A stretch of DNA of 51,304 nucleotides from a virus (IMGVR_UViG_3300028586_000030:1-51304); one strand, 5' to 3'; positions 254 to 51,304 are shown, numbered from the stretch's first letter. Program-made: numbers and translations. The notes: generated by a model from the sequence alone, not told the origin.

Positions 254-1294
254 TTAGTTAGCCCTCATGCCCATAAGCACGCCACGTATTGATTCGCCTG
301 CAAAATAAAGCTTGCAATTATATTGGTCGTGGACAACGGTCTGAGCAAACTTTTCAAACATCAAAATATAATTACCGTTGAATACCCCATCAGTAACGGG
401 GCTATCTTGATAATCGATGCTTGCAACATCGCTGTGAGCGTGACGACCTGCCCACACTTTACCGTCTTCGAAACAGACCGCCTCAGTCGATGCTTCGTCG
501 AGCGTAACTTTGCTGAACGGCATCATCGTTTTGATTGCTTCAAAGAATTCAGACTCAAGCTTTTTAGGCTCGTCCATAACTTTGCATTCGAACAGCTTAT
601 CGAAGTCCGGGCCTTTAACATCATACAGACAAGTACGCAGATAAGAATTGTCTTCAAACCAGAACGTAGCAGTTCCGTTAGACAAACCCAAGGCAACTAA
701 CGGTGAGTCATTCTTGCTTATCGCAACTGCGCTATCTTTCGGCATTGCGATGTTAGGCAGGGGGCTTACACCGTGCCATATCTGTATCGCAGCCTTGGCG
801 TCATGGATAGCCTCAACGGTGCCCGGACCCATGAACACGGCGCGGCACATGAGGTTACTGGCCGTTTCCAGCACTAGCCCAGCGGCCTGCCCCAGCGCCT
901 TTGCTAGTGCTGGCGATGCATCCCCCTGCCTGCCGTCCGGTTGCAGGTCAGCGAGCGTCGAGCCGTCCAGACAGGGCACAGGTACGCGGATTTTGCCTGA
1001 CTTGACGGTTAGCACGCTTCCCTCAAGCACGAATGTGATTTCACCCTGACAGCGTTCAAGCGCAGCCACGAGCGTTTTAGAGTGTGGGCAACATTCCACA
1101 GACAGGCCGGTAACAGGCACACCGTAAATGACGATATCGTTTGTTGCCACAACGTACCCGTTAAAGAATCGGCAGTGTGATTGCCGATCAGTAAGATTCG
1201 TTCCTTTCTGAATTGAGGTCACTTTCTGAACAGCCGCTAAAAGCGCTTTGTTCTCTTCGCTCATTTCTTTGTTTCGACCGCGCTTGACTGCCAT
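254..1294 (-). CDS. DNA sliding clamp (DNA pol III beta-like) protein
   Basis: 346 aa; beta-clamp-like ATND, PDF.KL and C-terminal GVLMGMR motifs; directly upstream of the polymerase. Confidence 0.7.
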   Translation of the reverse strand: MAVKRGRNKEMSEENKALLAAVQKVTSIQKGTNLTDRQSHCRFFNGYVVATNDIVIYGVPVTGLSVECCPHSKTLVAALERCQGEITFVLEGSVLTVKSGKIRVPVPCLDGSTLADLQPDGRQGDASPALAKALGQAAGLVLETASNLMCRAVFMGPGTVEAIHDAKAAIQIWHGVSPLPNIAMPKDSAVAISKNDSPLVALGLSNGTATFWFEDNSYLRTCLYDVKGPDFDKLFECKVMDEPKKLESEFFEAIKTMMPFSKVTLDEASTEAVCFEDGKVWAGRHAHSDVASIDYQDSPVTDGVFNGNYILMFEKFAQTVVHDQYNCKLYFAGESIRGVLMGMRAN

Positions 1295-1306
1295 TTAGCA
1301 AGCCTC

Positions 1307-1549
1307 TTAAAAAGGAATATCGTCTAAGTTTAAAGGATGATCGAAATCAGGACAAGACCACACAATAATCTTTAAAGGAGGGGTCATGTTATACTTAATG
1401 CATTTTGTTTCTGGATCACTCCAATGGTGACAACTGAGGCAAGACTTATGCCCGCCTTCGTGTCTAGCTAAAGCCGCTTCGGCTCGCAAACGAATGTTGT
1501 CAAGCTCATACCTTTTAAGCTTGTACTCTAACGCGCTTTTAGAATTCAT
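1307..1549 (-). CDS. Small 4-Cys protein ending in SSB-like DDIPF tail
   Basis: CLSC...C...C pattern, C-terminus LNLDDIPF; overlaps the helicase stop. Confidence 0.8.
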   Translation of the reverse strand: MNSKSALEYKLKRYELDNIRLRAEAALARHEGGHKSCLSCHHWSDPETKCIKYNMTPPLKIIVWSCPDFDHPLNLDDIPF

Positions 1550-3236
1550 GACGTACTACCTTCGGATATTTTGCACCGGGGGAAACTTCAACGGTTATCG
1601 TATGTGGACGTTTGAGCTTGTACGCAATACGTAAAGCGTCATCAACCTTTGACGGGATAAGGCTTCCGGGTTCTGAGCGGGTTAACCACCAGCCATGAGC
1701 GTGACGCGCCGCAGCGGTAGTATGTTCTAAGCAAACAATCTCAGTGTACTTTTTAGAACCGCAATGATAAACAACTTGAAGAATATTTATACCGCCTGAC
1801 GATAGTTTGGCGTATGTAATGTTTCCAACCTTGGCTGAATATAGCACAGGTTCCGAATTGGATAAGATGGCCTCGCCCGAACTTTGTCCGGTGTATTTTG
1901 TTTCGAACTTGAATTCGTGGTCGCACATATAGCAAAAGCGACTAGAAGCATAGTTGTAAGCTTTGCAGTACGTGACAGGGCATATTTTAACTGGGGCATC
2001 GCCACCTTCACCTTTTGACCGTTTTTTAAATAGAGGTGCATCAATTGGACCTAGCCGGGAAGTATTATCCGCAAAGTCCATAACGATACATTCAGTTTTT
2101 GTAAATTCAAAACCGGGGATGTACAAACGTTCATCCATCCAGTCGTAAACACGAAGACCCCGGCCAAGGATTTGAACCCATAGCGGGATAGAACAAGTGT
2201 GTCTGATAACACCGATGATATCGATAGGCGGATGGTCAAAGCCTGTAGTCAAAACACCGTTGTTAACCATCCAGCGGTATTTGCCTTGACGATAATCGCG
2301 TAAACGTTCATCGCGAACAGAATCTTTCATTTTAGAGTGAATTACAGTTGCCGTTTCACCCTGTAGTTGAAGCTCTTCACAAATATGTTCGGCGTGTTCA
2401 ATACCGTTGCCAAAAACTAGTCCGCAATGGCGGTTTCTAAGGTTAGCGACTTTTATAAGTTCGGCAACAGCCGCAACAGTCTTTTCGTGCTTGTCCGTGG
2501 CTTTCTGTAACTGCTGTTGATTAAAGTCACCTTTCGACATTCCAACATCTGAAATATCGTATTTGGTTTCAGTACCAACAGGAATAAGCGGGCACAGCCA
2601 CCGCTTTGCGATAAACTCTAAAAAATCTTCCGGTTTAGTGCGGTCGTAAATAATCTCACTAAACAAACTAATCGCTTTTTTAGTGATCGGGTCATGTTGA
2701 ATAAGCGTTCCGTAATTGTCGTACGCAGTCGCAGTTAGGCCGATGATTCTAAGAAGTTCATTTATTTCACGCAGACGAATGATTATACGGTTATAAACCG
2801 CATTCTCTTTTTCAGGGATGGTATGTGCTTCATCGACCAGCATTAAATCCCGATGGCCGATTTCTTCTAGCATGCTAACCAGACTGCCGGGGGTGCCAAT
2901 AACTATCGGGTGCATTGTGTCGCGTTGATTTAATCCGTCGCAGTTAATGCCGATAGGCACATTCGGCAAAAGGCTGCGCATTTTTTCAACGTTCTGTTTA
3001 ACCAAATCTTTACTAGGAACAACGATAAGAAACCGCATATTAGCAAGCGGGTAACGTTCAAAACACTTTACCAAAAACAAAGGTATTACAACGCTTTTAC
3101 CCGATGCAGTCGGCAGGGCAATAAGCGGATTGCCTTCGGCATTGTTGGCAAAAAATTCAAATGGCGCTTCCGCCGCTTCGTCCTGATAATAACGAGCGAC
3201 GTACTGGGCGATAGGGGTTTGAACCATTTGATTCAT
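1539..3236 (-). CDS. SF2 (DEAD/DEAH-box) DNA helicase with C-terminal Zn-finger region
   Basis: PTASGKS, DEAH, TAT, LTTGFD, QILGRGLR motifs; CPVTYC..CYMC. Confidence 0.95.
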   Translation of the reverse strand: MNQMVQTPIAQYVARYYQDEAAEAPFEFFANNAEGNPLIALPTASGKSVVIPLFLVKCFERYPLANMRFLIVVPSKDLVKQNVEKMRSLLPNVPIGINCDGLNQRDTMHPIVIGTPGSLVSMLEEIGHRDLMLVDEAHTIPEKENAVYNRIIIRLREINELLRIIGLTATAYDNYGTLIQHDPITKKAISLFSEIIYDRTKPEDFLEFIAKRWLCPLIPVGTETKYDISDVGMSKGDFNQQQLQKATDKHEKTVAAVAELIKVANLRNRHCGLVFGNGIEHAEHICEELQLQGETATVIHSKMKDSVRDERLRDYRQGKYRWMVNNGVLTTGFDHPPIDIIGVIRHTCSIPLWVQILGRGLRVYDWMDERLYIPGFEFTKTECIVMDFADNTSRLGPIDAPLFKKRSKGEGGDAPVKICPVTYCKAYNYASSRFCYMCDHEFKFETKYTGQSSGEAILSNSEPVLYSAKVGNITYAKLSSGGINILQVVYHCGSKKYTEIVCLEHTTAAARHAHGWWLTRSEPGSLIPSKVDDALRIAYKLKRPHTITVEVSPGAKYPKVVRHEF

Positions 3237-4150
3237 AGAACGGCCTTGTATTCATCGCAGCCGATAGGCACATACTCTCGCGGGATATCGTGACCGTACT
3301 TAGTGCAACGCCATTCAGCCCCGGCTATCGGAGTCGAATAAACACAGCTTCGACAGTTCTTATCAATCTTTTCGCCAAGGTGGCAAATCCCATGAAATGA
3401 GCACAGTCGGCATTCAAAATAAGTTTCTTTAGCCTTAGCCATCATTGCCGGAACAAAATCAGTGGCGATAATGTTTTCAGCACGACGTAAACCGGCTTCT
3501 GCTTTTTCAATAGAAAGCTTTGTTACTTCAACGTAAAGACTATCGTCGTTTTTATTGCAGCAAACATAAACGCCGTTTCCGATCTTGCGACCGTATCCGT
3601 AAATACTTTGCTGAATGAAATGCTCATCTTTGTTCTTTTCAATTCCAAGCCCGTCTTTATTTAAATTGTTAAACTTTGAGCCTGTACCTGACGTTTTATA
3701 TTCAGGAACAAAATCACCGGGCTGACTGTAAGAGTGTGGGAACTGAATAATACCGTCTGACGATCCGCCGAAGTGACCATGATGAAAGCTAACTTTCCAT
3801 TGCTTGCCGGTTTGAGGGTCAACTTCTTGAACATTAAACCCTATTCCGCGCAGCAAATAGTTCATCTGCGCTTCTTCATCTTTTCCGCGCTGAAACAAAC
3901 GAAGCGTACGACCGTCGGCAGTATTCTTTTTAAACCAACGAAAAGTTCCATATAAGAAACGGTCACAAGGCCGACCGATTATTGATGCGCCCAAGTGCCA
4001 ACGGTAATTGTCAGCGTAAGTAACTTTCGACCATTCTTCGATATCGGTTTGAATTTTGTTTGCAAGAAAAATTCGACGTTCAGGCGAGATTTCACCATCG
4101 TCGATAACAGGGGTTTCAAGTATTGAGTTGTTGGAGAAAATATCGCTCAT
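3233..4150 (-). CDS. Cas4-like PD-(D/E)XK exonuclease
   Basis: LGASIIGRPCDR, GSSDG, EYKT, Q..Y, ECRLC..C motifs; probable start MSDIF at 4150 (the ORF-track extension shadows the SSB repeats). Confidence 0.85.
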   Translation of the reverse strand: MSDIFSNNSILETPVIDDGEISPERRIFLANKIQTDIEEWSKVTYADNYRWHLGASIIGRPCDRFLYGTFRWFKKNTADGRTLRLFQRGKDEEAQMNYLLRGIGFNVQEVDPQTGKQWKVSFHHGHFGGSSDGIIQFPHSYSQPGDFVPEYKTSGTGSKFNNLNKDGLGIEKNKDEHFIQQSIYGYGRKIGNGVYVCCNKNDDSLYVEVTKLSIEKAEAGLRRAENIIATDFVPAMMAKAKETYFECRLCSFHGICHLGEKIDKNCRSCVYSTPIAGAEWRCTKYGHDIPREYVPIGCDEYKAVL

Positions 4151-4214
4151 GCTAACCCCGGCAAAGATAAGAAAAAATAACGGGCCGAAGCCCGTTATGT
4201 GAAGCGGTGTAAAT

Positions 4215-4988
4215 TTACTTTTGCATCCAAGGCGGAGTAGTACCGCCGCCATTCTGCTGGCCGTTGTTCTGTTGCTGACCGCCGCCCGTATTGTTCCAGT
4301 TACCGGCGTTTTGCTGGCCGTTGTTCTGTTGCTGGTTTTGGTCGGCCTGTTGCTGGTTACCTTGCTGGTTGCCTTGCTGACCGTTGTTCCAGTTCCCTTG
4401 CTGGCCGTTGTTGTTTTGTTGCTGGCCTTGATCGGTAGCTTGACCGTTGTTCTGTTGACCGCCGCCGTTGTTGTTCCATGCAACTTGCCCGTTTCCTTGC
4501 TGTTGGCCGTTGTTCTGTTGCTGGTTGTTCTGTTGAGTTTGACCGGTAGCGCCTTGGCGTGTCGGACGATTGCCGTTCACGTCATACACTGCGCTGATTT
4601 CGGTATAGCCTTTACCTTCGTTCTGTTCCGTCGCTTTTTGCGGAGTAACGTCGATGAGAAAAGGTTTGTTGTAAAGCTCGCGAGTGTCCTGCCAGTGCGG
4701 AGTTTGGCAAGCAATCGACAGCGCCGAAAGTTGACGATAAGCGATTTCAACCGCTCTTTCGCTTTGGTTGTAGATGTTCAGGCGATAAACGCCTTTCGCA
4801 CCTTTGTTCGCCCCGTCAATGATTTCGACTTCAAACGCGATAAAACCGTTACTCGCATTGCCTTTTGCGCCGACAACTTCATCAGATACGAGGCGGGCTG
4901 GTTGTTTCAGACCCAGCGGCAATTGGGGAACGCCCAATTCCGGGTCATAGTTCATCGCGTTGAATGGGCCAGTCATCAATTGTGTCAT
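4215..4988 (-). CDS. ssDNA-binding/annealing protein (DUF669-like) with Q/N/G-rich tail
   Basis: RLNIYN..AVEIA.RQLS core, low-complexity tail ending PPW; SD AAAGGA precedes MTQL; lies between AAA ATPase and exonuclease. Confidence 0.75.
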   Translation of the reverse strand: MTQLMTGPFNAMNYDPELGVPQLPLGLKQPARLVSDEVVGAKGNASNGFIAFEVEIIDGANKGAKGVYRLNIYNQSERAVEIAYRQLSALSIACQTPHWQDTRELYNKPFLIDVTPQKATEQNEGKGYTEISAVYDVNGNRPTRQGATGQTQQNNQQQNNGQQQGNGQVAWNNNGGGQQNNGQATDQGQQQNNNGQQGNWNNGQQGNQQGNQQQADQNQQQNNGQQNAGNWNNTGGGQQQNNGQQNGGGTTPPWMQK

Positions 4989-5001: not shown

Positions 5002-5697
5002 TTAGGACATACACTTGTTAAAGATAGTTGTGAGGTTTGGTTCTTCAAACTCATTCAACCGGCCCGAACGGTCGCGGGCCATAATGTCGAATGTTTCCAT
5101 TGTGCGAATTGCTTTTACTTCGTGCATCACTCCGGGAATGGTGCCTGCCGGTAGTTTTGCATAGTGCAAGATTTCATCGAAGAAATGCGGCACTTTTGTA
5201 TCAAGGTCTTGCCCCGGAAAGCTCGGGCGTTTACGACCGGATTCTTTATCGACAAACTGTTTCGCAATTAAGCAAATATGCTTGTTTCGAGTGTAATAGA
5301 GTTTCGTAAGAATGTCCATTACATCGAAAGACATATCGCCGTATGCTTTTAGTTTGTTCGTGTTCGTTTTAAACTTAGCACGAAGAATAGCTTCGGCCAT
5401 TTCGCTAACGCTGTCAAGCGCAAGTGTATCAAACTTGTTAGCTTCGGCGCTACCATGAAACCATGTAAAGAATTCAGCAACGCCCGCCGCAACACCGTCT
5501 TTATGCTCATATGCAGTCCAAGTAGGAACACTCGAATTCCGCATAGAAAGCAAACCCGGCTCAATCGCCAACAACACAGGCGAAGGTGCGGTATTAACCA
5601 ACGGAGTTTTACCTGCCCCCGGCCCGCCGTACAACACAGCTTTAACGCCGAACTTCTGCGCACACTGACCGGCGGGGCGAAGTTGCGAAGCGTTCAT
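5002..5697 (-). CDS. AAA ATPase (Sak4/AAA_24-like recombination protein)
   Basis: YGGPGAGKT Walker A, LDSVSE Walker B, ARDRSG. Confidence 0.88.
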   Translation of the reverse strand: MNASQLRPAGQCAQKFGVKAVLYGGPGAGKTPLVNTAPSPVLLAIEPGLLSMRNSSVPTWTAYEHKDGVAAGVAEFFTWFHGSAEANKFDTLALDSVSEMAEAILRAKFKTNTNKLKAYGDMSFDVMDILTKLYYTRNKHICLIAKQFVDKESGRKRPSFPGQDLDTKVPHFFDEILHYAKLPAGTIPGVMHEVKAIRTMETFDIMARDRSGRLNEFEEPNLTTIFNKCMS

Positions 5698-6464: not shown

Positions 6465-6502
6465 TGGTATTACCTCGGATCGATTGCTTGGAATGTGTGG
6501 GC

Positions 6503-6531
6503 ATCCTAGAGCAACAAATCTGCCTTGTCAA
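6503..6531 (-). promoter_or_regulatory. sigma70 promoter for the replication operon
   Basis: TTGACA-17-TAGGAT on the minus strand; TGTGGGCA site at 6496-6503 abuts the -10. Confidence 0.75.
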
Positions 6532-6599
6532 CAGGATGCTGCACTTTACGTCTAGGATTTTTACGTGTATCGTCGGCCCATATTTTGGAGACGCTGACC

Positions 6600-6821
6600 A
6601 TGCAGAACCCACCAACTACCATCACTGCCCACACTGTAGCCCTGCTTAAGACGCGCCCTGTGACGCTCGACCTCGACACGATTGCCGGGGAATGCAAGGT
6701 TAGCAAATCTTGGCTCAACCTCCTAATTGCGGGCAAATACAAAGAGCCCGGAGCCGACAAAATTCAGAGGCTTTATGAGTTTCTATCAAAGAAACCGCTG
6801 CTTAATAAAGAACCCATTTAA
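6600..6821 (+). CDS. HTH (Cro/XRE-like) DNA-binding protein
   Basis: IAGECKVSKSWLNLLIAGKYKEPGADKIQRL; SD GGAG before ATG 6600. Confidence 0.8.
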   Translation: MQNPPTTITAHTVALLKTRPVTLDLDTIAGECKVSKSWLNLLIAGKYKEPGADKIQRLYEFLSKKPLLNKEPI

Positions 6822-6830: not shown

Positions 6831-9191
6831 ATGTTGCGTAATGTCCCTGATGAACTACGCGCTTATAATAGCTTCGTGCTTTGGCGCTTAGAAGAGCAAC
6901 AGAACGGCAAACCTACTAAGGTTCCGTACTCGGTTAAAGGCCATCCCGCGTCTGTGAATTCGCCGTCGCATTGGTGCGACTTTGAGAGCGCGGTTAACAT
7001 GCTCAATTCACACCCGGATTATTTCGCGGGTATTGGGTTTGTGTTGTCTGAAAATGACCCGTTCACCTTTATCGATTTGGACGATCCGTTTGACCCGTCC
7101 AAGAATTACAGCCAAGAAGAAGCGCAAAAGATTGCGGATAGGCATTCGCTCATTCACGATTTGTTTGATTCTTACTCTGAGGTTTCGCCTTCGGGTAGAG
7201 GCTTGCACATTCTTTGCAAAGGCTCAGTTTCTCAAGGTCGTAAGCGTGCGCAGGTTGAGCTTTATTCAACGCAACGTTTCATGACGGTTACGGGCAACGT
7301 TTGCAAGAATCTGCAAATTGCCGAAAGACAAGAATTAATAACCGAACTTTGGTCGGAAATGAGTCGTGGCGCGGAAGTGTATACCGAATTGCCAGACCAG
7401 CCGCAGAAAGAAACAGACGACGATATCTGCCGTACAGCTTACAACGCCACTAACGGCGCTAAGTTTTACGACCTTTACACCGGCAATTGGCAGGTTTATT
7501 ACAGTTCTCAATCAGAAGCTGACTTTGGCCTAATCGACATTCTAGGCTTCTACACAAAGAACCGTTCTCAGATTACGCGCATCTTTCGTATGTCGGCCTT
7601 GGGTCAACGCGATAAAGCTTGGCGTAATGATTACGTAGATCACATGATCAACCGAAGCTTCGATAAAGACCCTACTCCGATTGATATGGAAGGGCTAAAG
7701 ATTCAAGTTGAAAGTGCATTAGCCGCTAGGCGTTCGGCCCAAGAACAAGTAGAGCAAGCTAAAGCCGAAGCGGTAAATCATCCGCCTGTAACTGAACAAG
7801 TGCGCAGCAAAAGCTATGTTAGCCAAGGCAGAACGTATACGTCGCCTCCCGGTGTCATCGGAATGATGGCCGACTTCATCTTTGAAGCCGCTAACCGCCC
7901 AGTATTCGAAATCGCTTTAGCCGGTGCAATCGGCTTAATGTCTGGCATCTGCGGACGAGCGTATAACGTCAGCGGAACCGGGCTGAATCAATACACATTG
8001 CTTATCGCCGCGACCGGCATCGGTAAAGAAGCAATGCGTAAAGGTATCGACAAGATAATTAACGCAGTTACTCCGCTGTCGCCTAACGCGAAGTCGTTTA
8101 TCGGTCCTCGCGAGATTGCATCACAGCAAGCCTTATCTAAACATTTTCATCGGCACTCTAAATCATTCGTCGCAATGCCGGGAGAAATTGGGCTTTGGCT
8201 ACAAGGAATCTGTCACCCGAATGCTGACCCGGCCAAAGCTGGCTTGAAGAAAATGTTGCTTGAGCTTTACAACATTTCAGGGCAAGGCGATGTATTTAAA
8301 GCTACGATTAACAGTAGCAAAGACGATTCTATCGACGCCACGGTAGCCCCGGCGTTTTCATTGCTGGGCGAATCTACACCGGAAGAGTTCTATAAGATTC
8401 TCGATGAAGCAATGATTAGCTCTGGTCTTTTGCCTCGATTTAACATTATTGAATACAAAGGATTGCGACCGCGTGAAAATGAAAATGCGATGTATGCGGT
8501 TCCATCTGACGGGTTGCTAAAAGGCGTTGCTGCGATATGTACCAACGCCTTAGCCCTGAATGAAACAAATCAGGTTATCAACGTTAAGTACAGCGAAGAC
8601 GGCCAAAACCTGTTAATGCAATGGCGTGACTTTTGCGACAAAGAGATTAACCACGCTATTGAGTCGGGTAAAGGCGGGGCGAGAACGCACCTCTGGAACC
8701 GGGGTCACATTAAAGTTTTGAAGCTGGCAGCATTGGTAGCTGTCGGCGTTGATCCGTATCACCCGATCATCGACGAAGAAACTGCCCGTTGGGCCATATC
8801 GATGACGTACGAAGATATCAAAGATTTGCTTCAACGTTTCGACGCTGGTGAAATCGGCCACGAAGGTTCGGAAAGCCGACAAATGCTTGACATTGCAGGT
8901 TGCTTTAGAGACTTTCTTACATCGCCTTATTCTGAAATCAAGGCGTACGGCGTCCCTGAGCCTCTATATGTTGAACGGATCGTTCCTTACAACTATTTGT
9001 ACAAGCGTCTTTCGCAAAAAGCCTCATACAAAACGGACAGGTCGGGTCGGCCAGTTGATGCAATAAAGAAAACAATTCAAACCCTAATGGACAGGGGCGA
9101 CATTCGCGAAGTTCCTAGAAACGAGTTGTCCAAACTCGGGACAAGCGCCCGAGCATTCATGATATCTAACCCATCGGCCTTTGGCCTTTAA
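6831..9191 (+). CDS. Primase-polymerase/helicase (NrS-1-like AEP N-terminus, DUF3987-like helicase domain)
   Basis: KPTKVP, FIDLDD, SEVSPSGRGLH, ELYS..RFMTVTG, SQSEADF, ATGIGKE, GLLPRF. Confidence 0.9.
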   Translation: MLRNVPDELRAYNSFVLWRLEEQQNGKPTKVPYSVKGHPASVNSPSHWCDFESAVNMLNSHPDYFAGIGFVLSENDPFTFIDLDDPFDPSKNYSQEEAQKIADRHSLIHDLFDSYSEVSPSGRGLHILCKGSVSQGRKRAQVELYSTQRFMTVTGNVCKNLQIAERQELITELWSEMSRGAEVYTELPDQPQKETDDDICRTAYNATNGAKFYDLYTGNWQVYYSSQSEADFGLIDILGFYTKNRSQITRIFRMSALGQRDKAWRNDYVDHMINRSFDKDPTPIDMEGLKIQVESALAARRSAQEQVEQAKAEAVNHPPVTEQVRSKSYVSQGRTYTSPPGVIGMMADFIFEAANRPVFEIALAGAIGLMSGICGRAYNVSGTGLNQYTLLIAATGIGKEAMRKGIDKIINAVTPLSPNAKSFIGPREIASQQALSKHFHRHSKSFVAMPGEIGLWLQGICHPNADPAKAGLKKMLLELYNISGQGDVFKATINSSKDDSIDATVAPAFSLLGESTPEEFYKILDEAMISSGLLPRFNIIEYKGLRPRENENAMYAVPSDGLLKGVAAICTNALALNETNQVINVKYSEDGQNLLMQWRDFCDKEINHAIESGKGGARTHLWNRGHIKVLKLAALVAVGVDPYHPIIDEETARWAISMTYEDIKDLLQRFDAGEIGHEGSESRQMLDIAGCFRDFLTSPYSEIKAYGVPEPLYVERIVPYNYLYKRLSQKASYKTDRSGRPVDAIKKTIQTLMDRGDIREVPRNELSKLGTSARAFMISNPSAFGL

Positions 9192-10053: not shown

Positions 10054-10326
10054 TCACGACTCTGGAGAAGTGTGGGCAACCCGATAAACGCTATCGCCTA
10101 CATCCGGAAGCATTCCCCGCTGTGCAAGCCAGGCCATTTCGGTCTCACGAGCGTTCAGGCTAGAGACCAACACAGCGTCTGCGCCGGGACCACAAACCTT
10201 ACCGCAGTTTATCCGGGCGTTCTCACGCAATGCCCGGTTCACCAGAGCCAGCGCCGTCAGATGGCCTGTGACTTCCGCATCGAAGCCGATCATTTCAACA
10301 CCGACCATACAGCAATGTCGTTGCAA
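10054..10326 (-). CDS. Hypothetical protein
   Basis: ORF in the leftward early cluster; start uncertain. Confidence 0.55.
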   Translation of the reverse strand: MQRHCCMVGVEMIGFDAEVTGHLTALALVNRALRENARINCGKVCGPGADAVLVSSLNARETEMAWLAQRGMLPDVGDSVYRVAHTSPES

Positions 10327-10752: not shown

Positions 10753-10813
10753 GCTTTATTTGAAAATATTTTCCGACCTGCCCACAATCATCGGTTGCCG
10801 AATTCAGGGCAAG

Positions 10814-14876: not shown

Positions 14877-15019
14877 GCTCAACGACAATCTTTTACCCGA
14901 ATGCCCACATTCTGCGGGCTTTGGACGTGGTTAAGGCTGCGATGGGCCTGATTTCGAATGGTCGTATGTATGAGCAAGGTTAGGGGCGTGAGCCCTATTC
15001 TACGCAGGCTGTAGAGGTT

Positions 15020-31399: not shown

Positions 31400-31413
31400 T
31401 AGGAAGTTAAAAC

Positions 31414-35693: not shown

Positions 35694-35716
35694 ACCCGGC
35701 CACTGTGCCGGGTTTT
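35694..35716 (+). terminator. Intrinsic terminator
   Basis: ACCCGGC-CACTGT-GCCGGGTTTT. Confidence 0.75.
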
Positions 35717-35734
35717 CTATATAAGGTATTTGCT

Positions 35735-42282: not shown

Positions 42283-42704
42283 ATGCAGATGAAGTTAACA
42301 GCCTGTGCGGTTGCGAATATAAAGCAGGTTCTTTTGGCCCCCCTGAAAATGGCTTTAACTGCTGGGGTTTACTGCATTATGTTCAGAAGCATTACTTTTC
42401 AGTGAAAATGCCTGTTGCCCCTATTGGCGACAGGGAGACTTGCTTACGGATGTTTGCCGACCGTGTTGAAGCTAAGGTGTGGGCACACGTTGAAAAACCT
42501 TCTCACGGCGACGGGGCTTTAATGAGAGAGGGGAAAAACCCGCATGTTGGTATCTATCTTGATATAGACGGCGGGGGTATACTTCACGCACTAGAAGGCA
42601 TGGGCGTTATATTCACGCCCTGCCAAGATTTGAATTATCACGGCTTTGGCCGGGTTAAATACTACAGGTTAAACAATGCCAAGCAATCTACTAATTCACC
42701 GTGA
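42279..42704 (+). CDS. NlpC/P60-family tail-tip assembly protein
   Basis: FNCWGL, HVGIY...GG.ILHA. Confidence 0.88.
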   Translation: MNADEVNSLCGCEYKAGSFGPPENGFNCWGLLHYVQKHYFSVKMPVAPIGDRETCLRMFADRVEAKVWAHVEKPSHGDGALMREGKNPHVGIYLDIDGGGILHALEGMGVIFTPCQDLNYHGFGRVKYYRLNNAKQSTNSP

Positions 42705-45700
42705 CCCATTCCGTATTCACGTAGATGTTGAAGAAAAAGAAATCGCGCATGGTTTAACAATATTCGAAACGGTTATTGGTTCAGGCTTAGCCGTTTCGAC
42801 TGAAACCGGAATTCAAAGAATAGGCACATACGTTGTTTTACATAACGGTGTGCCTATTTTGTTTAAGGATTGGGGTTTAGTCTTACAAGACAACGATGTT
42901 GTTCAAATTGCTTATCTGCCTAAAGGTGGTGGGGGTGGCGGTTCAAACATTAAAAGTATTATTGGTGCGGTGCTTATCGCAGTTGCGGCGTATTTTACTT
43001 TTGGCTTAAGCCTTGTCGCTACAGCCGCTGTCGGCATTGGTGCATTTGCTGTTTTATCTTTGGCAGGCTCTACCGTTCCGCAGCCGTCCACTTCAATGGG
43101 TAAAACAAGCTCAAGCACAAGCCCAACTTACTCTCTTAACGCCCAAGGTAATAACGCTCGTCTTCTTGAGGCCATCCCTCGTGTATACGGAAGAATGCGA
43201 ACTTTCCCTGATTTGGCGTCACAACCTTACAGTGAGTACGAAGGTAACGAGCAATACCTCTACCAGTTGTTTTGTATTTCGCTCGGCAGCATCGAAATAG
43301 AAAGAATCGACGTTGACGAAACAAACATCAACAGCTTTGAAGACGCCGAAATTCAGATAATCAACCCCGGCCAAGCTGTAACTCTCTTCCCGGATAACGT
43401 TGTTACTAGCGACGCTGTTAGTAACTTGGATATGCTCGGTCCAAATAACCCAACTTATTCCACCCTTGGACCTTTTGTTTCTTCTGGACCGGGTTCAAAG
43501 GCTAACTATATCGGCGTAGATATTGCTTTTCCTCGGGGTATTGGTCGAGTAGACGACACAGGTAATACCGTTGAGTCTTCATTAACCGTGCATTTTGATT
43601 ATCAAGAGGTTGACGATTCCGGACAAGCTATCGGCCCGTGGAACGTTCTTTTCGAAAAAGTTTATACTTTCGCCACACAAGACCCCCAGCTTGTAAGCGT
43701 TAAAACCGAAGTTTTACCCGCTCGCTATCAAGTTCGCGGTTACAGAATGACGCCCGAATCCGACGATAACCGGAGCTTTGACGCTGCTCAGTGGATAGGT
43801 CTAAAGTCTTATCTTCAATCGACACACGTTTATGGCGATGTAACGTTGCTTGCCACAAAGATGCGAGCTACAAACGCTTTAAACTCTTCTACGGCGCGCA
43901 AGCTTAGCGTTATCTCTAAAGGGCTTGTTCAAAAATGGGACCCGGTAAACGGATGGGGGGCTTTAGAATTTTCAGCTAACCCGGCATGGGTAGGCGCAGA
44001 CATTCTTCGAAATACTGAATATGGTAGGGGTTTAGGTACAGACCGAATGGTCATCAATACTCTTTACCGACTATCTGCCGTTTGGGACCAACGCGGGGAT
44101 ATGTTCAACGGTGTATTCGATACAACCTCGCAGTTATGGGAAGCGCTCAGTCAAGTTTTCAGAGTTGGTCGAGCCGTTCCTATTTATTATGCAGGTGTCA
44201 TTGACGTTATTCGTGATGAGCCGCAAACCGCAGTCAAGTCTTTATTTCAACCGGCTAATATGGTCTTGGGTTCGTTTAGCACAACCTATAGCTATTACGA
44301 TACTGATACGCCCGACCATGTAATCGTCGAATATATTGATTCGGTCACTTGGAAGCCCGCAACCGTTGTTTGCAAACTTCCGGGAGAAACTGCAAACAAC
44401 CCTTATAACGTTAAGCTTTTCGGTTGCACTGACAGAGATCAGGGATTTAGAGAAGGGATTTCTATGGCGGCGGCAAACCGCGACCGTCGTCGCTCTATAT
44501 CATTCACTGCATTGAGCGATGGTTTTATTCCTCGCTTTAATTCATTGTCTCGCATTAGCCATGATGTTCCTCAATGGGGCTACAGCGGTCGGGTAATAAG
44601 TTTAAACCGCATAAATGGTAAGCTTTCTACATCCGAACCTATTCCTTTTAACGATCAAGTTACGTATTACATCGCCTTTAGAAAACGCAACGGCTCAGAA
44701 GATGGGCCTTACGTTATGGTCAAGGATAACTCTCTAGACGAAGAAAGCGGACAATTCGGATGCATCGTTTCTGCCAGCGCTGAACAACTTGCAAACATTT
44801 ATATTAGCGACGGCACAAGAGAAGACCTTACTTATTACCAGTGCGGGCCAACTGAGCGCGAAGGTTTAAAAGTCTTGATTACATCGGCTTTGCCCGACGG
44901 TAAAGGCAAAGTAAACATCGTCGCAATAAACTACGCCGATAGCGTTCATTCTGCTGAAAATGGCGGTGTAGTTCCGCCGCCTGCGCCTGCGTCTGAACTT
45001 CCGGGAATTCCATCCGCGCCTATTGTAAACAGCGTAACCGTTGTTTACACAGTAGAAATTGGAATTCAAAACATTATCGCCACACCTGCGTTAGGCGCAA
45101 TCTATTATGAGTTCGCAGCCAAGAGCGCGGCTGGCGACTGGGCTGTTCTCGGGACCAACCAAAGCCCGACGTTGCAGGTCTACCTGTCGCCCGGTGAATG
45201 GTCTGTACGCGTGCGCGGCGTCGGTAGGGCTGTCGGCCCTTGGGCGACTTGGAACGGCACCATTGAAGCTACAAGCCTTCCAACACCACGGCTGGACAGC
45301 TTCACTGCGACCACAAAGCTTTTCACAATCGGGCTCAACTGGTCGTATCAAGCCGAGACAAACACAATTGCCGAACGCATAGAAGTGTGGGCATCACAGG
45401 GCGATGTTTTAGGTAATGCAAGTCGTCTTGTTGATCTACCTTATCCTGCAAATGCTTTCGATCACGTTATTGGTCGCGCTGGTGAAATTTGGTATTACTG
45501 GGCACGAGTCATTGACAAAGCAAAACGGGTTGGACCGTGGTTTAACCTTGCCGGAACAATAGGACAAACAAGCAATGATGCTGATCCTATTCTAGATATG
45601 ATAGAAGGTCGGATTGAAGAAGAACATTTAGGGCAATTACTTCAAGAAAAAATTGAACTTATCGCCGTTCTTCAAGCACAAGTTAATGCGCTCGATGGTC

Positions 45701-46788
45701 TAAAAGGATACGAAAATAAGCCATACACTAAAGGGCAGATGGTTGTAGAGAACGGAATAATTTATCTCGCAACGCAAGCTGTGCCCACAAATACGCCTCC
45801 GCCGAATACAACTTACTGGAAAAACGTAGGCGAGTTGTTGGAAACATCCAATGCGCTGGCCGGTCAGATTTCTACAATTCAGTCTCAGATAACAGAAATA
45901 AACGGTTCGGTTGTTGCCCAAGCTGCGGCTAACCAATCGTTGAAAGCGGCTGTTCGTGATTCTGATAACTACAACGGTTTGGCAGATGCTTTAGCCGGTT
46001 ATAACGCAATGGCTTCGGCTGTAAATGAATCACAAGTTAGAGCTAGCGAGTCAGAAGCAAGCGCTAGAACAATTATTCAATTAACTGCAAGCATTAATGG
46101 AAACACAGGTCAAGTTACGTCTCTTCGCGAAACAGTAGCTACTAACCAATCTGTTACTAGCCAAGCTTTAGAGCAAGTTTCTTCGCGAGTTTCAAACAAC
46201 GAAGGCCAAATAACTAGCCTAAGCAAAGTTGTAGTTGATAATCAAACTGCCACTTCTACATCCTTACAGCAAGTTAGCGCTAGAGTTGGAACAGCGGAAG
46301 GTAAAATAGAAACACAATCTACAGTGGTTGCCGATATAAACGGTAAAGTATCTACCACGTGGACTATGCGTTTACAACAAACATCTAACAACGCTTATAA
46401 ATTTTTGGGAATTGGCGGCGGGATTGCAAACGGTGCAGACGGATTGTTACAAGCTAGCTTTTATATTGCAGCGGATAAGTTTGCATTTATCAACGACACG
46501 ACAAACGGTATTGAAGTTCCATTTGCTTTAGAAGGCGGACAAACATTCATTAAAGAAGCTTTTATTAAAAAAGCTACAATTCAAAACTTGCTGGTTGGTG
46601 CAACGCTTGGATCAACTGCTAGAATTGGATCGGGGCCAAACCAAAATAAGCAGGTGATGATTCAAGATTTTAACGTTGGTCAAACGACTTATAATGGTTT
46701 ATCATTAACTCGCGTTGACAATAGCGCGGGAACAAAAATTACCGATGTTAACTCGGGAATTGCGGTTATTGAATGGGGTGAGGTTTAA
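42676..46788 (+). CDS. Central tail fibre / tip attachment protein (lambda J-like)
   Basis: 1370 aa; N.AR....IP..YG, NPAW, FNGVFD, FnIII-like region, coiled coil, ADKFA..PF....GQ.FI. Confidence 0.92.
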   Translation: MPSNLLIHRDPFRIHVDVEEKEIAHGLTIFETVIGSGLAVSTETGIQRIGTYVVLHNGVPILFKDWGLVLQDNDVVQIAYLPKGGGGGGSNIKSIIGAVLIAVAAYFTFGLSLVATAAVGIGAFAVLSLAGSTVPQPSTSMGKTSSSTSPTYSLNAQGNNARLLEAIPRVYGRMRTFPDLASQPYSEYEGNEQYLYQLFCISLGSIEIERIDVDETNINSFEDAEIQIINPGQAVTLFPDNVVTSDAVSNLDMLGPNNPTYSTLGPFVSSGPGSKANYIGVDIAFPRGIGRVDDTGNTVESSLTVHFDYQEVDDSGQAIGPWNVLFEKVYTFATQDPQLVSVKTEVLPARYQVRGYRMTPESDDNRSFDAAQWIGLKSYLQSTHVYGDVTLLATKMRATNALNSSTARKLSVISKGLVQKWDPVNGWGALEFSANPAWVGADILRNTEYGRGLGTDRMVINTLYRLSAVWDQRGDMFNGVFDTTSQLWEALSQVFRVGRAVPIYYAGVIDVIRDEPQTAVKSLFQPANMVLGSFSTTYSYYDTDTPDHVIVEYIDSVTWKPATVVCKLPGETANNPYNVKLFGCTDRDQGFREGISMAAANRDRRRSISFTALSDGFIPRFNSLSRISHDVPQWGYSGRVISLNRINGKLSTSEPIPFNDQVTYYIAFRKRNGSEDGPYVMVKDNSLDEESGQFGCIVSASAEQLANIYISDGTREDLTYYQCGPTEREGLKVLITSALPDGKGKVNIVAINYADSVHSAENGGVVPPPAPASELPGIPSAPIVNSVTVVYTVEIGIQNIIATPALGAIYYEFAAKSAAGDWAVLGTNQSPTLQVYLSPGEWSVRVRGVGRAVGPWATWNGTIEATSLPTPRLDSFTATTKLFTIGLNWSYQAETNTIAERIEVWASQGDVLGNASRLVDLPYPANAFDHVIGRAGEIWYYWARVIDKAKRVGPWFNLAGTIGQTSNDADPILDMIEGRIEEEHLGQLLQEKIELIAVLQAQVNALDGLKGYENKPYTKGQMVVENGIIYLATQAVPTNTPPPNTTYWKNVGELLETSNALAGQISTIQSQITEINGSVVAQAAANQSLKAAVRDSDNYNGLADALAGYNAMASAVNESQVRASESEASARTIIQLTASINGNTGQVTSLRETVATNQSVTSQALEQVSSRVSNNEGQITSLSKVVVDNQTATSTSLQQVSARVGTAEGKIETQSTVVADINGKVSTTWTMRLQQTSNNAYKFLGIGGGIANGADGLLQASFYIAADKFAFINDTTNGIEVPFALEGGQTFIKEAFIKKATIQNLLVGATLGSTARIGSGPNQNKQVMIQDFNVGQTTYNGLSLTRVDNSAGTKITDVNSGIAVIEWGEV

Positions 46789-47788: not shown

Positions 47789-47798
47789 GGTTTTATTT

Positions 47799-49268
47799 AT
47801 GGCTTGGTCAAGAGTAGGAACAGTATCGGTAGCTAACAACACAACCGTTGTTACTGGTAGCGCTAATGTTGGTTTTGCCGCGAACGCTAGAAACGGCGAT
47901 GAATTTGTAGGGCCAGACGGCAGGGGTTATGAAATATCACAGGTCGCCAGTGATACCCTTCTTTCTTTGGCATCGCCTTATTTAGGACCAACTGTAAGCA
48001 ACGGCTCATACTCAATTAAGCCTACAGCGGCTTATCCGCGAGCTTTAACCGATTCATTTTCAGCAATAAACGCCCAATGGGGGCAAAAGCTGGCCGGTCT
48101 AAAGACAACCGGAAATTACGATACTTTGCCGGTTAGTAAAGGAGGCACTAACGCGGCTGATGGAAACACAGCGGCAGTTAACTTAGGGTTTATGGATGGA
48201 ACTATGTATCCTAAATTTGGCGGATTCGGGGTAGCGGCAGGGGCAGGGGGTTACAATTTACAAGGAGGCTACGTAGGGTGGGCTACACCGGGTTCAGTTC
48301 TTGGCGGAGCGATGGATTTCATATGTAACCGAGGCGGCGGGGCAGGTGGTTTTACTTGGAAATCGGTTAACGGCAATAATACCGCCTCTGGTCCTACAAT
48401 GTCATATAACTATGACGGTATTCTTTCTGTTCCTTTAGCCATTTCAGCACCTAGGATTGATAATTTATCTACAGTCACAAGCCCGTTTACAGCCGCCCCG
48501 ACTGTTTCTAACGGGGCTGCATTTGGAGCTTCTATAACTGTAAGAGGAGCCCCATTCGTCAATAGCTGGGCACGGCTAGACTGGGCTAATACCCAGCTTC
48601 CCGCAGCTTCTGTATATATGACGTACCTGGATAATACAGGGCTTGCCGTTCATCGTAACGATTCAGGAGGAGGCATTGAGTTCTGGACGCAGCAAACACG
48701 GCGGCTATTTCTTGGCGGCGGTGGAGTATTACAGCCCGGACAAGACAATTCTTATCCTTTAGGTAGCGGTTCTCTTCGTTTTATAACGGCCTACCTGAAC
48801 ACCGCTCCGGTCGTAACCTCGGACGCCCGAGAAAAAACCGAAGTTCGCAAAATGACGGACTTTGAAATTGCCGCTGCTAAGGCGCTTGGAAAGGAAATAG
48901 GCTTCTATAACTTCATCAAAGCGGTCGATGAAAAAGGCGATAAAGCAAGACTGCATTGCAGCATGACCGTTCAGCGCGCAATGGAAGTAATGAGTGAAAA
49001 TGGTCTTGACCCATTAAAGTATTCATTTATTTGTTATGACACTTGGGAACAAGAAGTCAAAGAACATCCCGCCGAATATGAGCAAATAGAAATTCACGAT
49101 TCTGAAAATGGGCTTGTTTCATACTCTCAAGGCGAGTTAAAAAAAGAAGCTTGGACAGAAGTTTTAGTAGAAAAAGGAGACAGGTATTCTTTTCGAACAG
49201 ACGGGCTTCTTTTCTTTATCGCGGCGGGTTTAGAAGCTAGGCTTGCAGCTTTAGAAGAATTGCTTTGA
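47799..49268 (+). CDS. Tail fibre with C-terminal intramolecular chaperone (peptidase S74-like)
   Basis: MAW.R.GTVSV N-terminus, LPVSKGGT, TSDAREK cleavage motif, Y.FICYD.W, DRYSFR. Confidence 0.9.
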   Translation: MAWSRVGTVSVANNTTVVTGSANVGFAANARNGDEFVGPDGRGYEISQVASDTLLSLASPYLGPTVSNGSYSIKPTAAYPRALTDSFSAINAQWGQKLAGLKTTGNYDTLPVSKGGTNAADGNTAAVNLGFMDGTMYPKFGGFGVAAGAGGYNLQGGYVGWATPGSVLGGAMDFICNRGGGAGGFTWKSVNGNNTASGPTMSYNYDGILSVPLAISAPRIDNLSTVTSPFTAAPTVSNGAAFGASITVRGAPFVNSWARLDWANTQLPAASVYMTYLDNTGLAVHRNDSGGGIEFWTQQTRRLFLGGGGVLQPGQDNSYPLGSGSLRFITAYLNTAPVVTSDAREKTEVRKMTDFEIAAAKALGKEIGFYNFIKAVDEKGDKARLHCSMTVQRAMEVMSENGLDPLKYSFICYDTWEQEVKEHPAEYEQIEIHDSENGLVSYSQGELKKEAWTEVLVEKGDRYSFRTDGLLFFIAAGLEARLAALEELL

Positions 49269-49279
49269 CACAGAAAGAC

Positions 49280-49307
49280 AAAAGGCCCAATTCGGGCCTT
49301 TTTTTTT
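49280..49307. terminator. Bidirectional terminator
   Basis: AAAAGGCCC-AATTC-GGGCCTTTTTTTTT between the convergent fibre and polymerase genes. Confidence 0.88.
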
Positions 49308-51304
49308 AAAACGAAAATCTTCGCTGGCCTTTCAAATCGTCTTCTTTGTAATATCCAATCTTAACCATCATTTTCTTTGTTCGCTGAACATACCATTCGT
49401 AGTTAATATCGTCTGGAAATTGTTCCGGCAAGTCCATACAGGGTTTACCGCCTTCTGTTTCAGGAACTTTGTTGTTTGAAAGAACATAGTTGATAGTTCC
49501 GCGAACGTGGATCGACGAATACCATCTAATGAACTTGCCCACAAACTGCCCGTCTTTGTGCGCTCCGCCTTTAACGTCTCTAACCGCAACGAACTTTGTT
49601 ATGTCTTCGCATTGACGAATCGTTTGTTCAATTGGGGTTCCGCTAAGCAAGAATGCACAGATAGCTTCTGTGCAAATCTGGAACGTCGGGTTTACATGGA
49701 ACCGGAATATCTGAGCTTTCTTATCAGGCCAAGGGTTTGCGTACGCTCCTTTAAGCTTGCACACTTCCTTTTCATCTAGCCAGTTTTTGCCGTAGTTCAG
49801 TTTCTCCGTTGCTTTATCTTCTTTGTATTTAACAGCAATATAGTTGTTAACATCCTTGCTGTACAGCGCCTGATAGCCTGTCTCTTCTGTTTCGAAAAGC
49901 GTATCGGCTTCCCATTGCTTCACGATGGCTTCAAATATGTGCCTGTCGCTTCGCCTAACCTTGCTCACAAGGCCGTCAGTGTTTGCCGATACAACACGTA
50001 TGCCTGCCAGTTCAAGACGTTCAGCGAGCATTAGTAGGAAAAACTGACCGCTGATCGTAACTTGCAAGAGGAGATCGGGTGAATAAATAATTGACCACTT
50101 CGAACCAAACTTACCAAAGCCGCCGTTAATAACAATCTTAAGACTGTTTGCGCCAATGATATCTTTAGCTTGCTTGGCTGTAAGACGAGCAACAACAATG
50201 CCGTCATACACCAACAGGAACGGTGCCCCCAAGTGTTTAGGGAACAGTTTTTGGTTAAGGATAATCCGAGGGTAATAGCTCGCAACATCACGGTCTAACA
50301 GGATGTATTCAGCGCAGGAAGTGTGGGCAATACTCTTTTCTTGGCTGTGAATACCGCCCATGCCAATTTTATAAACGGTTTCGTTTATCTTTAGCTTTAG
50401 ACCCCAAACAAATTTCCCTTGTTTGTTCTTTTCGAGAACACCTAAACCTACAGGCCAAACAGGAGAACCGCCGTTATCCAAAGAAAACTTAGCGGCTAAA
50501 ACATCGTTATACGCTTTTTGCAAATGAGGAGAGTGAAACGTTATTAACCCCGTATCTTTATATTCGCATTTATAACCTTCTGCTAAGGTTGGTCGTTTAG
50601 GGTCACGCCCTAATATCTTAGCGAGTTCCTTTTTCATAACAGCTTCGGCCATTTGTGCATCGGACTTAGACCGCAAGTCGATACCATATTTAGCCGACAT
50701 AACTTCACGAAGCTTTAGCTCTTCGCGAAGGTTTTCAATTAGGAGCAATGTGTTTTGACAGTCGGCATGCACGCAGTAGTTTTTAATATCTAGCGCTTGC
50801 TCTTGGCTTAAGTCTTTGTACGGGTCGTAGGGTAACTCTTGCATACGTTTAGCGTGCAAGCGACCTGCATATTTCTTCAAAGTCCCTTTAAGCGGGCACA
50901 CTGCCATAATGTCGATATGGTTCATAAAGGGAGGAACAATATTGTACGCTTCGTAAATATCGTCAACTCGCCAATCTTCATCAATGATTCTATTTGAGGC
51001 TTGTTTTAACTCTTTACAGCCATACCCTTTTAGCGCCATATAGACTAACGGCATATCGTAATGATTGCCGTTAAAAGTGTAAGTTTTAAACGCGTATAAG
51101 CACCATGCCAATTTCATACAATCGATGCTTGAATCTGGCGATATTTCGAATATTGCGGCTTTACCTGTTTTTATATGGAGCAAAGCGATAAGAAAATAAT
51201 TAGGGTAACACTCAACGTCAAGTATTACTTCATCGCCAACCATTGCCGCAAATTCGTGAGGCTGGATTTCGTTAATCGGCTTTAGTTCACGATGCGTGAA
51301 AGTT
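49306..51304 (-). CDS. Family-B DNA polymerase (continues across the junction; start at 253)
   Basis: Exonuclease DVE / FNG.HYD / YC..D; polymerase motifs DVASYYP, KIVINGGFGKFG, NTDG, DVNNY. Confidence 0.93.
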   Translation of the reverse strand, partial: TFTHRELKPINEIQPHEFAAMVGDEVILDVECYPNYFLIALLHIKTGKAAIFEISPDSSIDCMKLAWCLYAFKTYTFNGNHYDMPLVYMALKGYGCKELKQASNRIIDEDWRVDDIYEAYNIVPPFMNHIDIMAVCPLKGTLKKYAGRLHAKRMQELPYDPYKDLSQEQALDIKNYCVHADCQNTLLLIENLREELKLREVMSAKYGIDLRSKSDAQMAEAVMKKELAKILGRDPKRPTLAEGYKCEYKDTGLITFHSPHLQKAYNDVLAAKFSLDNGGSPVWPVGLGVLEKNKQGKFVWGLKLKINETVYKIGMGGIHSQEKSIAHTSCAEYILLDRDVASYYPRIILNQKLFPKHLGAPFLLVYDGIVVARLTAKQAKDIIGANSLKIVINGGFGKFGSKWSIIYSPDLLLQVTISGQFFLLMLAERLELAGIRVVSANTDGLVSKVRRSDRHIFEAIVKQWEADTLFETEETGYQALYSKDVNNYIAVKYKEDKATEKLNYGKNWLDEKEVCKLKGAYANPWPDKKAQIFRFHVNPTFQICTEAICAFLLSGTPIEQTIRQCEDITKFVAVRDVKGGAHKDGQFVGKFIRWYSSIHVRGTINYVLSNNKVPETEGGKPCMDLPEQFPDDINYEWYVQRTKKMMVKIGYYKEDDLKGQRRFSF
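51105..51304. repeat. Terminal direct overlap, right copy
   Basis: Matches 1-200 with one mismatch; indicates a circular assembly or terminal redundancy. Confidence 0.97.

Follow-up and report, generated by a model that had tools for sequence, protein, structure and literature searches.

Evenly spaced octamers in a siphophage genome and its relatives as candidate recognition sites of an NrS-1-type primase-polymerase

We analysed the virus record IMGVR_UViG_3300028586_000030, which in its entirety (51,304 bases, 46.5% G+C, zero tRNA genes) is the window referred to below. The element in question is the octamer TGTGGGCA, the most frequent 8-mer of this genome with 26 exact copies, 18 on the plus strand and 8 on the minus strand, together with the gene at 6831–9191, whose product we propose as its reader. 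In PHROG and Pfam scans the phage looks like a lytic siphophage, and no match to integrase or repressor families was found among the 55 open reading frames (ORFs) compared with PHROGs or the 56 compared with Pfam. A leftward replication block encodes a family A DNA polymerase, a clamp-like factor, an SF2 helicase, a Cas4-domain exonuclease and a Sak4-like ATPase, the helicase and nuclease genes overlapping by 4 bases. The primase gene runs rightward and is followed by MazG, by a block of small genes and then by the genes for lysis, terminase, portal, capsid, tape measure, J-like fibre and tail fibre (Table 1).

The octamer is strongly over-represented at the DNA level. None of 100 dinucleotide-preserving shuffles reached 26 copies (mean 1.37, maximum 6), and 300 shuffles of synonymous codons inside ORFs gave a mean of 3.5 (s.d. 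1.4) and a maximum of 9. With crude ORF calling all 26 copies lie inside ORFs, 1, 7 and 9 of them in sense frames 0, 1 and 2 and 3 in each of the three antisense frames. A first-pass annotation had described the word as frame-independent and not driven by protein sequence, which the use of six frames and the codon shuffles bear out; an exact search also returned all 26 copies at the positions and strands it had listed, 20 of them in the longer form GTGTGGGCA, as it had said. The four one-mismatch variants it named do exist, at 3735 (+), 21358 (−), 25752 (−) and 30307 (+), but its suggestion that such variants fill gaps in the spacing found no statistical support: as a class they are not enriched (21 observed versus about 33 expected from shuffles), and we rejected them as weak sites. 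The consensus with its flank reads aaaG-TGTGGGCA, with flank information on the 5' side only (2.36 bits over positions −4 to −1 versus 0.10 bits over +1 to +4). The 5' flank was the more informative one in 16 of the 18 genomes compared below.

Table 1. Octamer copies, the proposed reader and other features of the window. The last column gives, for octamers, the state of the homologous place in the related contig G001 and, for genes, family matches and occurrence in other genomes.
Feature	Position	Strand	Conservation or match
Octamer	449–456	−	Exact at homologous G001 place
Octamer	1083–1090	+	Kept
Octamer, 335 bp upstream of primase gene	6496–6503	+	Kept
Octamer, 205 bp upstream of primase gene	6626–6633	−	Kept
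Octamer	10071–10078	+	Region unalignable
Octamer	10779–10786	−	Unalignable
Octamer	12131–12138	+	Kept
Octamer, left of (TA)n tract	14902–14909	−	Unalignable
Octamer, right of (TA)n tract	15489–15496	+	Unalignable
Octamer	15768–15775	+	Unalignable
Octamer	17263–17270	+	Kept, within a 39-bp similarity island
Octamer	20283–20290	+	Unalignable
Octamer	22962–22969	+	Unalignable
Octamer	25338–25345	+	Kept
Octamer	28412–28419	+	Homologous place reads TGTGGGTA
Octamer	33237–33244	+	Kept
Octamer	33777–33784	−	Kept
Octamer	34680–34687	+	Kept
Octamer	37777–37784	+	Unalignable
Octamer	40657–40664	+	Not kept
Octamer	40988–40995	−	Unalignable
Octamer	42478–42485	+	Kept
Octamer	45386–45393	+	Unalignable
Octamer	45782–45789	−	Unalignable
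Octamer	49536–49543	−	Kept
Octamer	50322–50329	+	Not kept
Primase-polymerase (archaeo-eukaryotic primase, AEP) with helix-bundle domain and fused helicase-like C-terminal part; proposed octamer reader	6831–9191	+	PHROG 3022 'DNA primase', E 2e-214
Clamp-like polymerase processivity factor	254–1294	−	PHROG; no homologue detected in 20Sep420
SF2 (DEAD/ResIII) helicase, replication module	1539–3236	−	PHROG, Pfam; found in 18/18 motif-bearing genomes
Cas4-domain exonuclease	3233–4483	−	PHROG; no homologue detected in Axy20
Sak4-like annealing ATPase	5002–5697	−	PHROG, Pfam; no homologue detected in Lucius
Family A DNA polymerase	49306–51243	−	PHROG; no homologue detected in motif-bearing G043, VpKK5
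98-aa ORF	6525–6821		No family match
(TA)n tract	15216–15238		
Tail fibre	47799–49268		

The feature is far wider than one genome. In a ranking of words by their excess over an order-3 Markov model, one type led in 18 of 18 genomes with a homologue of the 6831–9191 gene: TGTGG plus three more positions, filled by G, T or C, by C or T, and by A, in that order. The hosts of these phages are alpha-, beta- and gammaproteobacteria. TGTGGGC or TGTGGGCA came top in the window, in the IMG/VR contigs G001 and G043 and in Pseudomonas phages KP1 and Kakheti25, Xanthomonas phage Langgrundblatt2, Escherichia phage Shy, Sphingomonas phage Lucius, Achromobacter phage Axy20 and Rhodobacter phage RcTitan. The forms TGTGGTCA, TGTGGTTA or TGTGGCCA came top in Vibrio phage VpKK5 (TGTGGTCA and TGTGGCCA), in Pseudomonas phage JG054, Salmonella phage SE1 and Alteromonas phage R7M (TGTGGTCA and TGTGGTTA), in Pantoea phage Vid5, and in Pseudomonas phage 20Sep420 and Vibrio phage AQKL99 (TGTGGTCA), with 49 copies of TGTGGTTA in Vid5 and 30 in R7M, while CTGTGG-type words stood on top in Rhizobium phage RHEph06. 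Forward/reverse counts of TGTGGGC, followed in brackets by those of the reversed word as control, were 19/15 (2/0) in G043, 14/7 (1/2) in KP1, 18/12 (0/0) in Kakheti25, 12/8 (2/0) in Langgrundblatt2, 13/9 (2/0) in Shy, 15/7 (0/0) in Lucius, 16/7 (1/5) in Axy20 and 19/7 (0/0) in RcTitan. Two control siphophages that lack a homologue of the 6831–9191 gene, Medea1 and Klebsiella phage VAC111, both lack such a word. A further 65 IMG/VR loci, 8 kb or longer, encode a relative of the primase; in 35 of them a TGTGG-type word headed the list of over-represented 7-mers.

The sites on the plus strand of the window are spaced more evenly than random ones (coefficient of variation, CV, 0.44 versus 0.93 for the null, P = 0.0004). 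The evenness that the first-pass annotation had proposed therefore holds for the plus strand, and not for the eight minus-strand sites taken by themselves (CV 0.77, P = 0.40). Mean distances are 2.9 kb on the plus and 6.4 kb on the minus strand, which is the scale of Okazaki fragments. Across the 18 genomes, the strand with more sites was evenly covered at P < 0.05 in 17 and at P < 0.005 in 13, and it was more even than both strands pooled in 12 of 13. A less even pooled set is expected if each strand, when single-stranded, needs its own coverage, and the per-strand evenness fits a signal read on single-stranded template. An apparent pairing of minus with plus sites was rejected: all eight minus sites lie 130–786 bp from a plus site, yet the median of 563 bp does not differ significantly from a null of 758 bp (P = 0.21), the effect appeared in 0 of 13 genomes, and such proximity is not unusual because the plus series is itself even.

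Strand polarity is about 2:1 and consistent across genomes. Portal, terminase and capsid genes are detectable in 16 genomes, and in all 16 their sense strand is the one that carries more sites, the majority strand; the strand of the primase gene itself varies among genomes. Inside gene blocks of opposite orientation the majority strand is mostly unchanged, and pooled over 13 genomes 192 sites are sense and 157 antisense to the gene they lie in (crude ORF calls in both cases). The polarity is thus genome-wide and not tied to local transcription. In the window, the half-circle from 40988 to 14902 holds 7 of the 8 minus sites, and the other half holds 11 plus sites and 1 minus site. This clustering is not significant for eight points and was not kept in G001, where the half homologous to the minus-poor one has four minus sites. 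The (TA)n tract near 15.2 kb was considered as the place of a bidirectional theta origin, which is not supported. The tract lies between the leftward and rightward early gene blocks, with divergent octamers on either side (14902 on the minus and 15489 on the plus strand), and could be an origin duplex-unwinding element or a promoter region.

Conservation of position was computed against G001, a 49.2-kb IMG/VR contig with 27 copies that is collinear with the window after rotation and 65–72% identical (about 68%) where alignable. Twelve of the 15 window sites in aligned blocks are exact at the same place and strand, and 12 of the 16 G001 sites in these blocks are exact in the window. At this divergence about 5% of unconstrained 8-mers survive, and independent drift would leave about 0.7 of the 15 sites. 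Outside the conserved places the sites have turned over, with number and spacing kept. The octamer sites are, as judged from this comparison, under selection.

We then asked which protein could read the word. In tblastn comparisons of all window proteins with the other genomes, the only universal ones were replication proteins: the primase gene and the SF2 helicase were found in 18 of 18 genomes, and the Cas4 nuclease, Sak4 and the clamp-like factor were each undetected in one. The contig G043 (55.8 kb, with terminal repeats) is a natural module swap. It has only the replication module in common with the window, namely the clamp-like factor, SF2 helicase, Cas4 nuclease, Sak4, primase and two small proteins, and tblastn detected no homologues of the window terminase, capsid, tail or family A polymerase genes, yet it carries 34 copies of TGTGGGC versus 2 of the control. 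Because G043 still has the word, this gene-content comparison rules out packaging, structural and polymerase genes as readers; the family A polymerase is likewise undetected in VpKK5, which also bears the motif, and so is not the reader.

The match of the 6831–9191 product to PHROG 3022 is full-length, and its relatives carry the annotation primase/helicase. In phmmer searches of the PDB its best match was PriRep5 of SaPI5 (7OLA, E 1e-34, residues 4–253), and structures of the N300 fragment of NrS-1 (6A9W, 6K9A and 7RR3) matched residues 9–161 with E of about 2e-16. An archaeo-eukaryotic primase (PrimPol) catalytic domain lies at the N terminus, with DxD and SPSGxGLH motifs that align with NrS-1, and the predicted helix-bundle region also aligns, including a common RIFRxSxL stretch. 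No simple rule linking helix-bundle residues to motif variants emerged on inspection of the alignment. By homology, the product is an NrS-1-type primase-polymerase/helicase; its helicase part, which in this enzyme type is a C-terminal superfamily 3 ring, is putative. Since the phage has a separate family A polymerase, likely the elongating enzyme, the 6831–9191 enzyme is probably a primase only. None of the proteins that the first-pass annotation had put forward (at 15443, 23258, 6600 and 12357) is as good a candidate, for it is this enzyme that tracks the motif and has published matching specificity. The candidate at 6600 is the 98-aa ORF, which adjoins the primase gene upstream and has homologues in 7 of 12 compared genomes; the gene at its place in Kakheti25 is annotated 'HTH DNA binding protein', and a role as an accessory DNA-binding partner is possible.

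The sequence specificity of enzymes of this kind is known from the literature. According to PMC8718748, NrS-1 priming depends on the template word 5'-TTTGGTTA-3' or on 5'-GTG(G/A)-3', with GTGG the most efficient, and site binding is assigned to the helix-bundle domain; the same text describes the pRN1 primase-polymerase ORF904 as reading 5'-GTG-3' through its helix-bundle domain. GTGG lies inside every variant of the present motif, and TGTGGTTA and the NrS-1 8-mer are the same at 7 of 8 positions. We therefore favour, with some confidence, the reading that the octamers are recognition sites of the phage's NrS-1-type primase-polymerase/helicase for lagging-strand initiation. In this model the word-bearing strand would become single-stranded at the fork, where the helix-bundle domain of the enzyme would bind the word; synthesis of the primer would begin at the template bases that adjoin the word on its 5' side, and its extension would fall to the family A polymerase and the clamp-like factor. 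The additional information lies on the 5' side, where such an enzyme would begin its primer. An enzyme that requires a long word would oblige the genome to carry that word often enough on each strand, and long stretches without a primer site would be selected against, so that the sites stay even and conserved inside genes in any frame. The plus strand, which has most sites, would be the lagging-strand template of forks moving with late transcription, for example in a rolling-circle phase. Three parts of the model are inferred: recognition of the word by this enzyme, a start of priming at it, and fork direction.

Several points weigh against this reading, which is based on comparison. Co-occurrence does not by itself point to the primase, as the SF2 helicase is present in 18 of 18 genomes and Cas4 and Sak4 in nearly all. 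Two of the Pfam matches do not exceed their cutoffs: the model of the NrS-1 polymerase helix-bundle domain (PF22763) matches residues 227–262 marginally, at 27.9 bits, which equals the curated cutoff, and the helicase-like C-terminal part matches just DUF3987, at 21.3 bits against a cutoff of 27. The 18 genomes are related, so that polarity and spacing do not represent 18 independent events, the gene strands in the block-orientation comparison come from a crude ORF caller, and the minus-strand sites of the window are not significantly even by themselves. Of the 65 further loci, the other 30 have a different top 7-mer. The need for 8–12 bases is not obvious either, as NrS-1 primes well on the common 4-mer GTGG. 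Finally, the known system uses its site differently. In the NrS-1 record AB746912.1, 11 copies of AAAGTGTAAC(C) lie on both strands at 17062–17378, directly after the primase gene; this array is the origin, and the published 8-nt site occurs once in the genome, inside the array and not dispersed. Both published NrS-1 primase sites seem, from their sequences, to be parts of the origin iteron. The dispersed octamers are thus a known type of signal in a new role and do not copy the NrS-1 arrangement.

The same enzyme could also read the word as duplex DNA. In that case the octamers would be dispersed iterons bound by the C-terminal part of the primase-helicase and would act as self-loading points for the helicase or as mini-origins. 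The best PDB match is PriRep5 of SaPI5, NrS-1 has its 11 GTG-containing iterons beside the primase gene, and a convergent pair of octamers (6496 on the plus and 6626 on the minus strand) lies just upstream of the primase gene in the window and is kept in G001. According to PMC9371898, the C-terminal winged helix of PriRep5 binds origin iterons of 5–6 bp and the protein self-loads. However, the PriRep5 match is limited to the N-terminal residues 4–253 and does not include the iteron-binding C terminus, and the octamers are single and dispersed rather than clustered round AT-rich DNA. Each strand is even alone while the pooled set is less so, and a duplex-binding loader should ignore strand, whereas the polarity is 2:1. 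We consider this explanation unlikely.

The SF2 helicase and the Cas4-family nuclease (1539–4483) invite another explanation, in which the octamer is a Chi-like signal, private to the phage and read by this pair, that directs end resection towards recombination-dependent replication or protects concatemer ends. The helicase is found in 18 and the nuclease in 17 of the 18 motif-bearing genomes, their genes overlap by 4 bases, and strand polarity with coverage of the whole genome would suit a directional enzyme that enters from ends. Against this, Axy20 bears the motif and has no detectable homologue of the nuclease, and VAC111 has a distant homologue of the SF2 helicase (27% identity) and no motif. 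The match to published primase sites (GTGG, and 7 of 8 positions of TTTGGTTA) would have to be a coincidence, and we know of no phage enzyme of the helicase-nuclease type with a Chi of its own. We hold such a signal to be improbable, about as much so as duplex iterons or slightly more.

More doubtful still are programmed nicks of one strand at the octamers, like those of T5, tf or phiKMV, or a base modification of the virion DNA that is specific to the word. Asymmetric, dispersed and strand-biased short words do resemble the consensus sites of phage nicks, and part of the wider clade (Queuovirinae) is annotated as guanine-modifying. Yet the sites lie on both strands, the ORFs of the window scanned against PHROGs and Pfam gave no DpdA-like or methylase match, and no nickase or methyltransferase is common to the motif-bearing genomes, G043 having only replication proteins in common with the window. 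To our knowledge, even spacing on each strand is not a property of nick sites. The public runs that contain the phage are kept as contigs, in which molecule ends do not show. Literature searches on nicks in Septimatrevirus and on a motif in RcTitan returned nothing relevant.

Over-represented polar 8-mers in bacteria are usually words of host factors. The window word was counted in Pseudomonas, which we took as host from the similarity of the tail fibre. Along its whole length this protein has 60–65% identity to prophage fibres under the names Pseudomonas amygdali and P. alliivorans, and from this one protein the host is probably a Pseudomonas of the syringae group; a search of genome contigs with the tail fibre found one Pseudomonas locus and no more. 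Pseudomonas genomes have a G+C content of about 58–60%, and that of the window lies well under this value despite the direction in which the tail fibre points. One Pseudomonas chromosome has 122 copies of the octamer versus 102 of the reversed-word control, and the count of the 9-mer matched the reversed-word control in 41 of 41 Pseudomonas genomes. The same word is common to phages of Escherichia, Xanthomonas, Sphingomonas, Achromobacter and Rhodobacter, and its variant tracks phage lineage and not host, as the Pseudomonas phages Kakheti25 and JG054 differ in it. A word read by a host factor, be it a Chi for RecBCD or AddAB, a KOPS-like or uptake sequence or a transcription-factor site, is therefore close to refuted. 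The first-pass annotation had proposed a phage- or host-encoded activity along the whole chromosome; an activity at the DNA level, most likely phage-encoded, stands, and the host part does not.

If the octamers are indeed primase sites, the long word may in addition label DNA as 'self' for replication: on DNA without it the PrimPol would not prime efficiently, and phage-driven synthesis would be confined to phage DNA. We offer this only tentatively. It would draw on a word that recurs every 2–3 kb per strand in the phage versus about 1 copy per 40 kb of Pseudomonas chromosome, and that would co-diverge with the helix-bundle domain, position 6 being G, T or C by lineage. The result would be a hard-wired code of Okazaki starts that shapes the coding sequence of hundreds of alpha-, beta- and gammaproteobacterial phages.

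Primase sites are usually 3–5 bases long and too common to mark a genome. Here a long site is apparently held by selection at even intervals, on each strand and inside genes in any frame, and it spans the genera Septimatrevirus, Lokivirus, Titanvirus, Vidquintavirus, Bixiavirus and Kleczkowskavirus and the Queuovirinae. If the proposal is true, the template specificity of a PrimPol-helicase family would be predictable from sequence alone, and the genomes would encode a map of lagging-strand starts and fork direction in phages with unstudied replication. It would also account for a synonymous-site constraint that could be broken unknowingly in annotation and recoding projects, and Escherichia phage Shy on E. 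coli K-12 is one example of the simple test system that it would offer. We found no description of the word or of a priming role for it in the literature searched, outside of which lay most subscription journals and supplementary files. Matches to the sequence string were mostly primer tables and were set aside, as was the sole phage one (PMC3483164), a listing of ribosome-binding sites.

Other repeated words were seen in the compared genomes. Two IMG/VR fragments carry what are, by their sequences, different dispersed repeats in distant relatives: one has a palindromic word around AACAAGCTTGTT, with overlapping 8-mers that each reach a count of 10 in 5.9 kb when both strands are included, and the other has GCGCGAACCTT 12 times in 8.1 kb. 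Besides its TGTGGTCA sites, AQKL99 has GCCTGGC and GCCAGGC at 53 places together versus 3.4 expected. The top 7-mer of a further IMG/VR locus is GCTGGTG (12 copies in 16 kb), which we take to be the core of E. coli Chi. The palindrome AAGCTT, with 67 window sites, exceeds the uniform expectation about 5-fold and that of an order-3 Markov model just 1.3-fold; it is also common in Kakheti25 (62 sites) and RcTitan (77), and has 0 sites in Shy (about 16 expected) and 1 in VAC111. From these counts its scarcity looks like restriction-site avoidance in the enterobacterial phages only. The window is also represented in environmental sequence data: a leaf-litter metatranscriptome run has contigs identical to 30712–32432 (capsid) and 35700–36275 (tail-chaperone), and three DNA runs contain relatives of about 90% identity, one of them as a 50-kb contig.

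Among the known systems, NrS-1 is like the present one in its homologous enzyme (E of about 2e-16 for the AEP domain, together with the helix-bundle domain) and in an 8-nt template word with a GTGG core, one variant of the present family being one position off; furthermore, the extra information lies here on the 5' side, which in NrS-1 is the side of primer start. It is unlike in that the NrS-1 enzyme is also the replicative polymerase, whereas this phage has a separate family A polymerase, and in that the NrS-1 8-mer occurs once, in clustered iterons, whereas the window word occurs 26 times, dispersed over both strands. The pRN1 ORF904 protein, as summarised in PMC8718748, likewise takes its template specificity from the helix-bundle domain, has a GTG core and starts its primer outside the motif; its site is a trinucleotide on an archaeal plasmid, for which that summary reports no genome-wide spacing constraint. 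PriRep5 of SaPI5 is the closest solved relative of the N-terminal part and is a primase-helicase fusion with sequence-specific DNA contact, but the iterons of SaPI Rep are 5–6 bp long, cluster at an AT-rich core beside the gene and are recognised in duplex form through a C-terminal winged helix (PMC9371898). In general, the window sites differ from origin iterons of the NrS-1 and SaPI type, as they are not clustered by AT-rich DNA near the initiator gene and instead are dispersed, and even on the plus strand.

Other known systems share some traits. The gp4 protein of T7, whose recognition sites PMC2910064 treats, is likewise a phage primase-helicase and needs a defined template word for every Okazaki start, but it is of the DnaG/zinc-finger type and its sites, at 3 to 5 nt, are too frequent to need selection. 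Chi of RecBCD and AddAB is, like the octamer, a polar over-represented 8-mer across a whole replicon; Chi is a host word and not evenly spaced, whereas the window word is absent from the host statistics and common across hosts. The stoperators of L5, to which the first-pass annotation had likened the octamers, resemble them as about 25–30 asymmetric dispersed sites, many of them intragenic. That analogy fails, as stoperators belong to a temperate phage, are read by a repressor and are oriented with transcription, none of which holds for the window, where the scanned ORFs gave no repressor or integrase match and the orientation of the sites does not follow local transcription.

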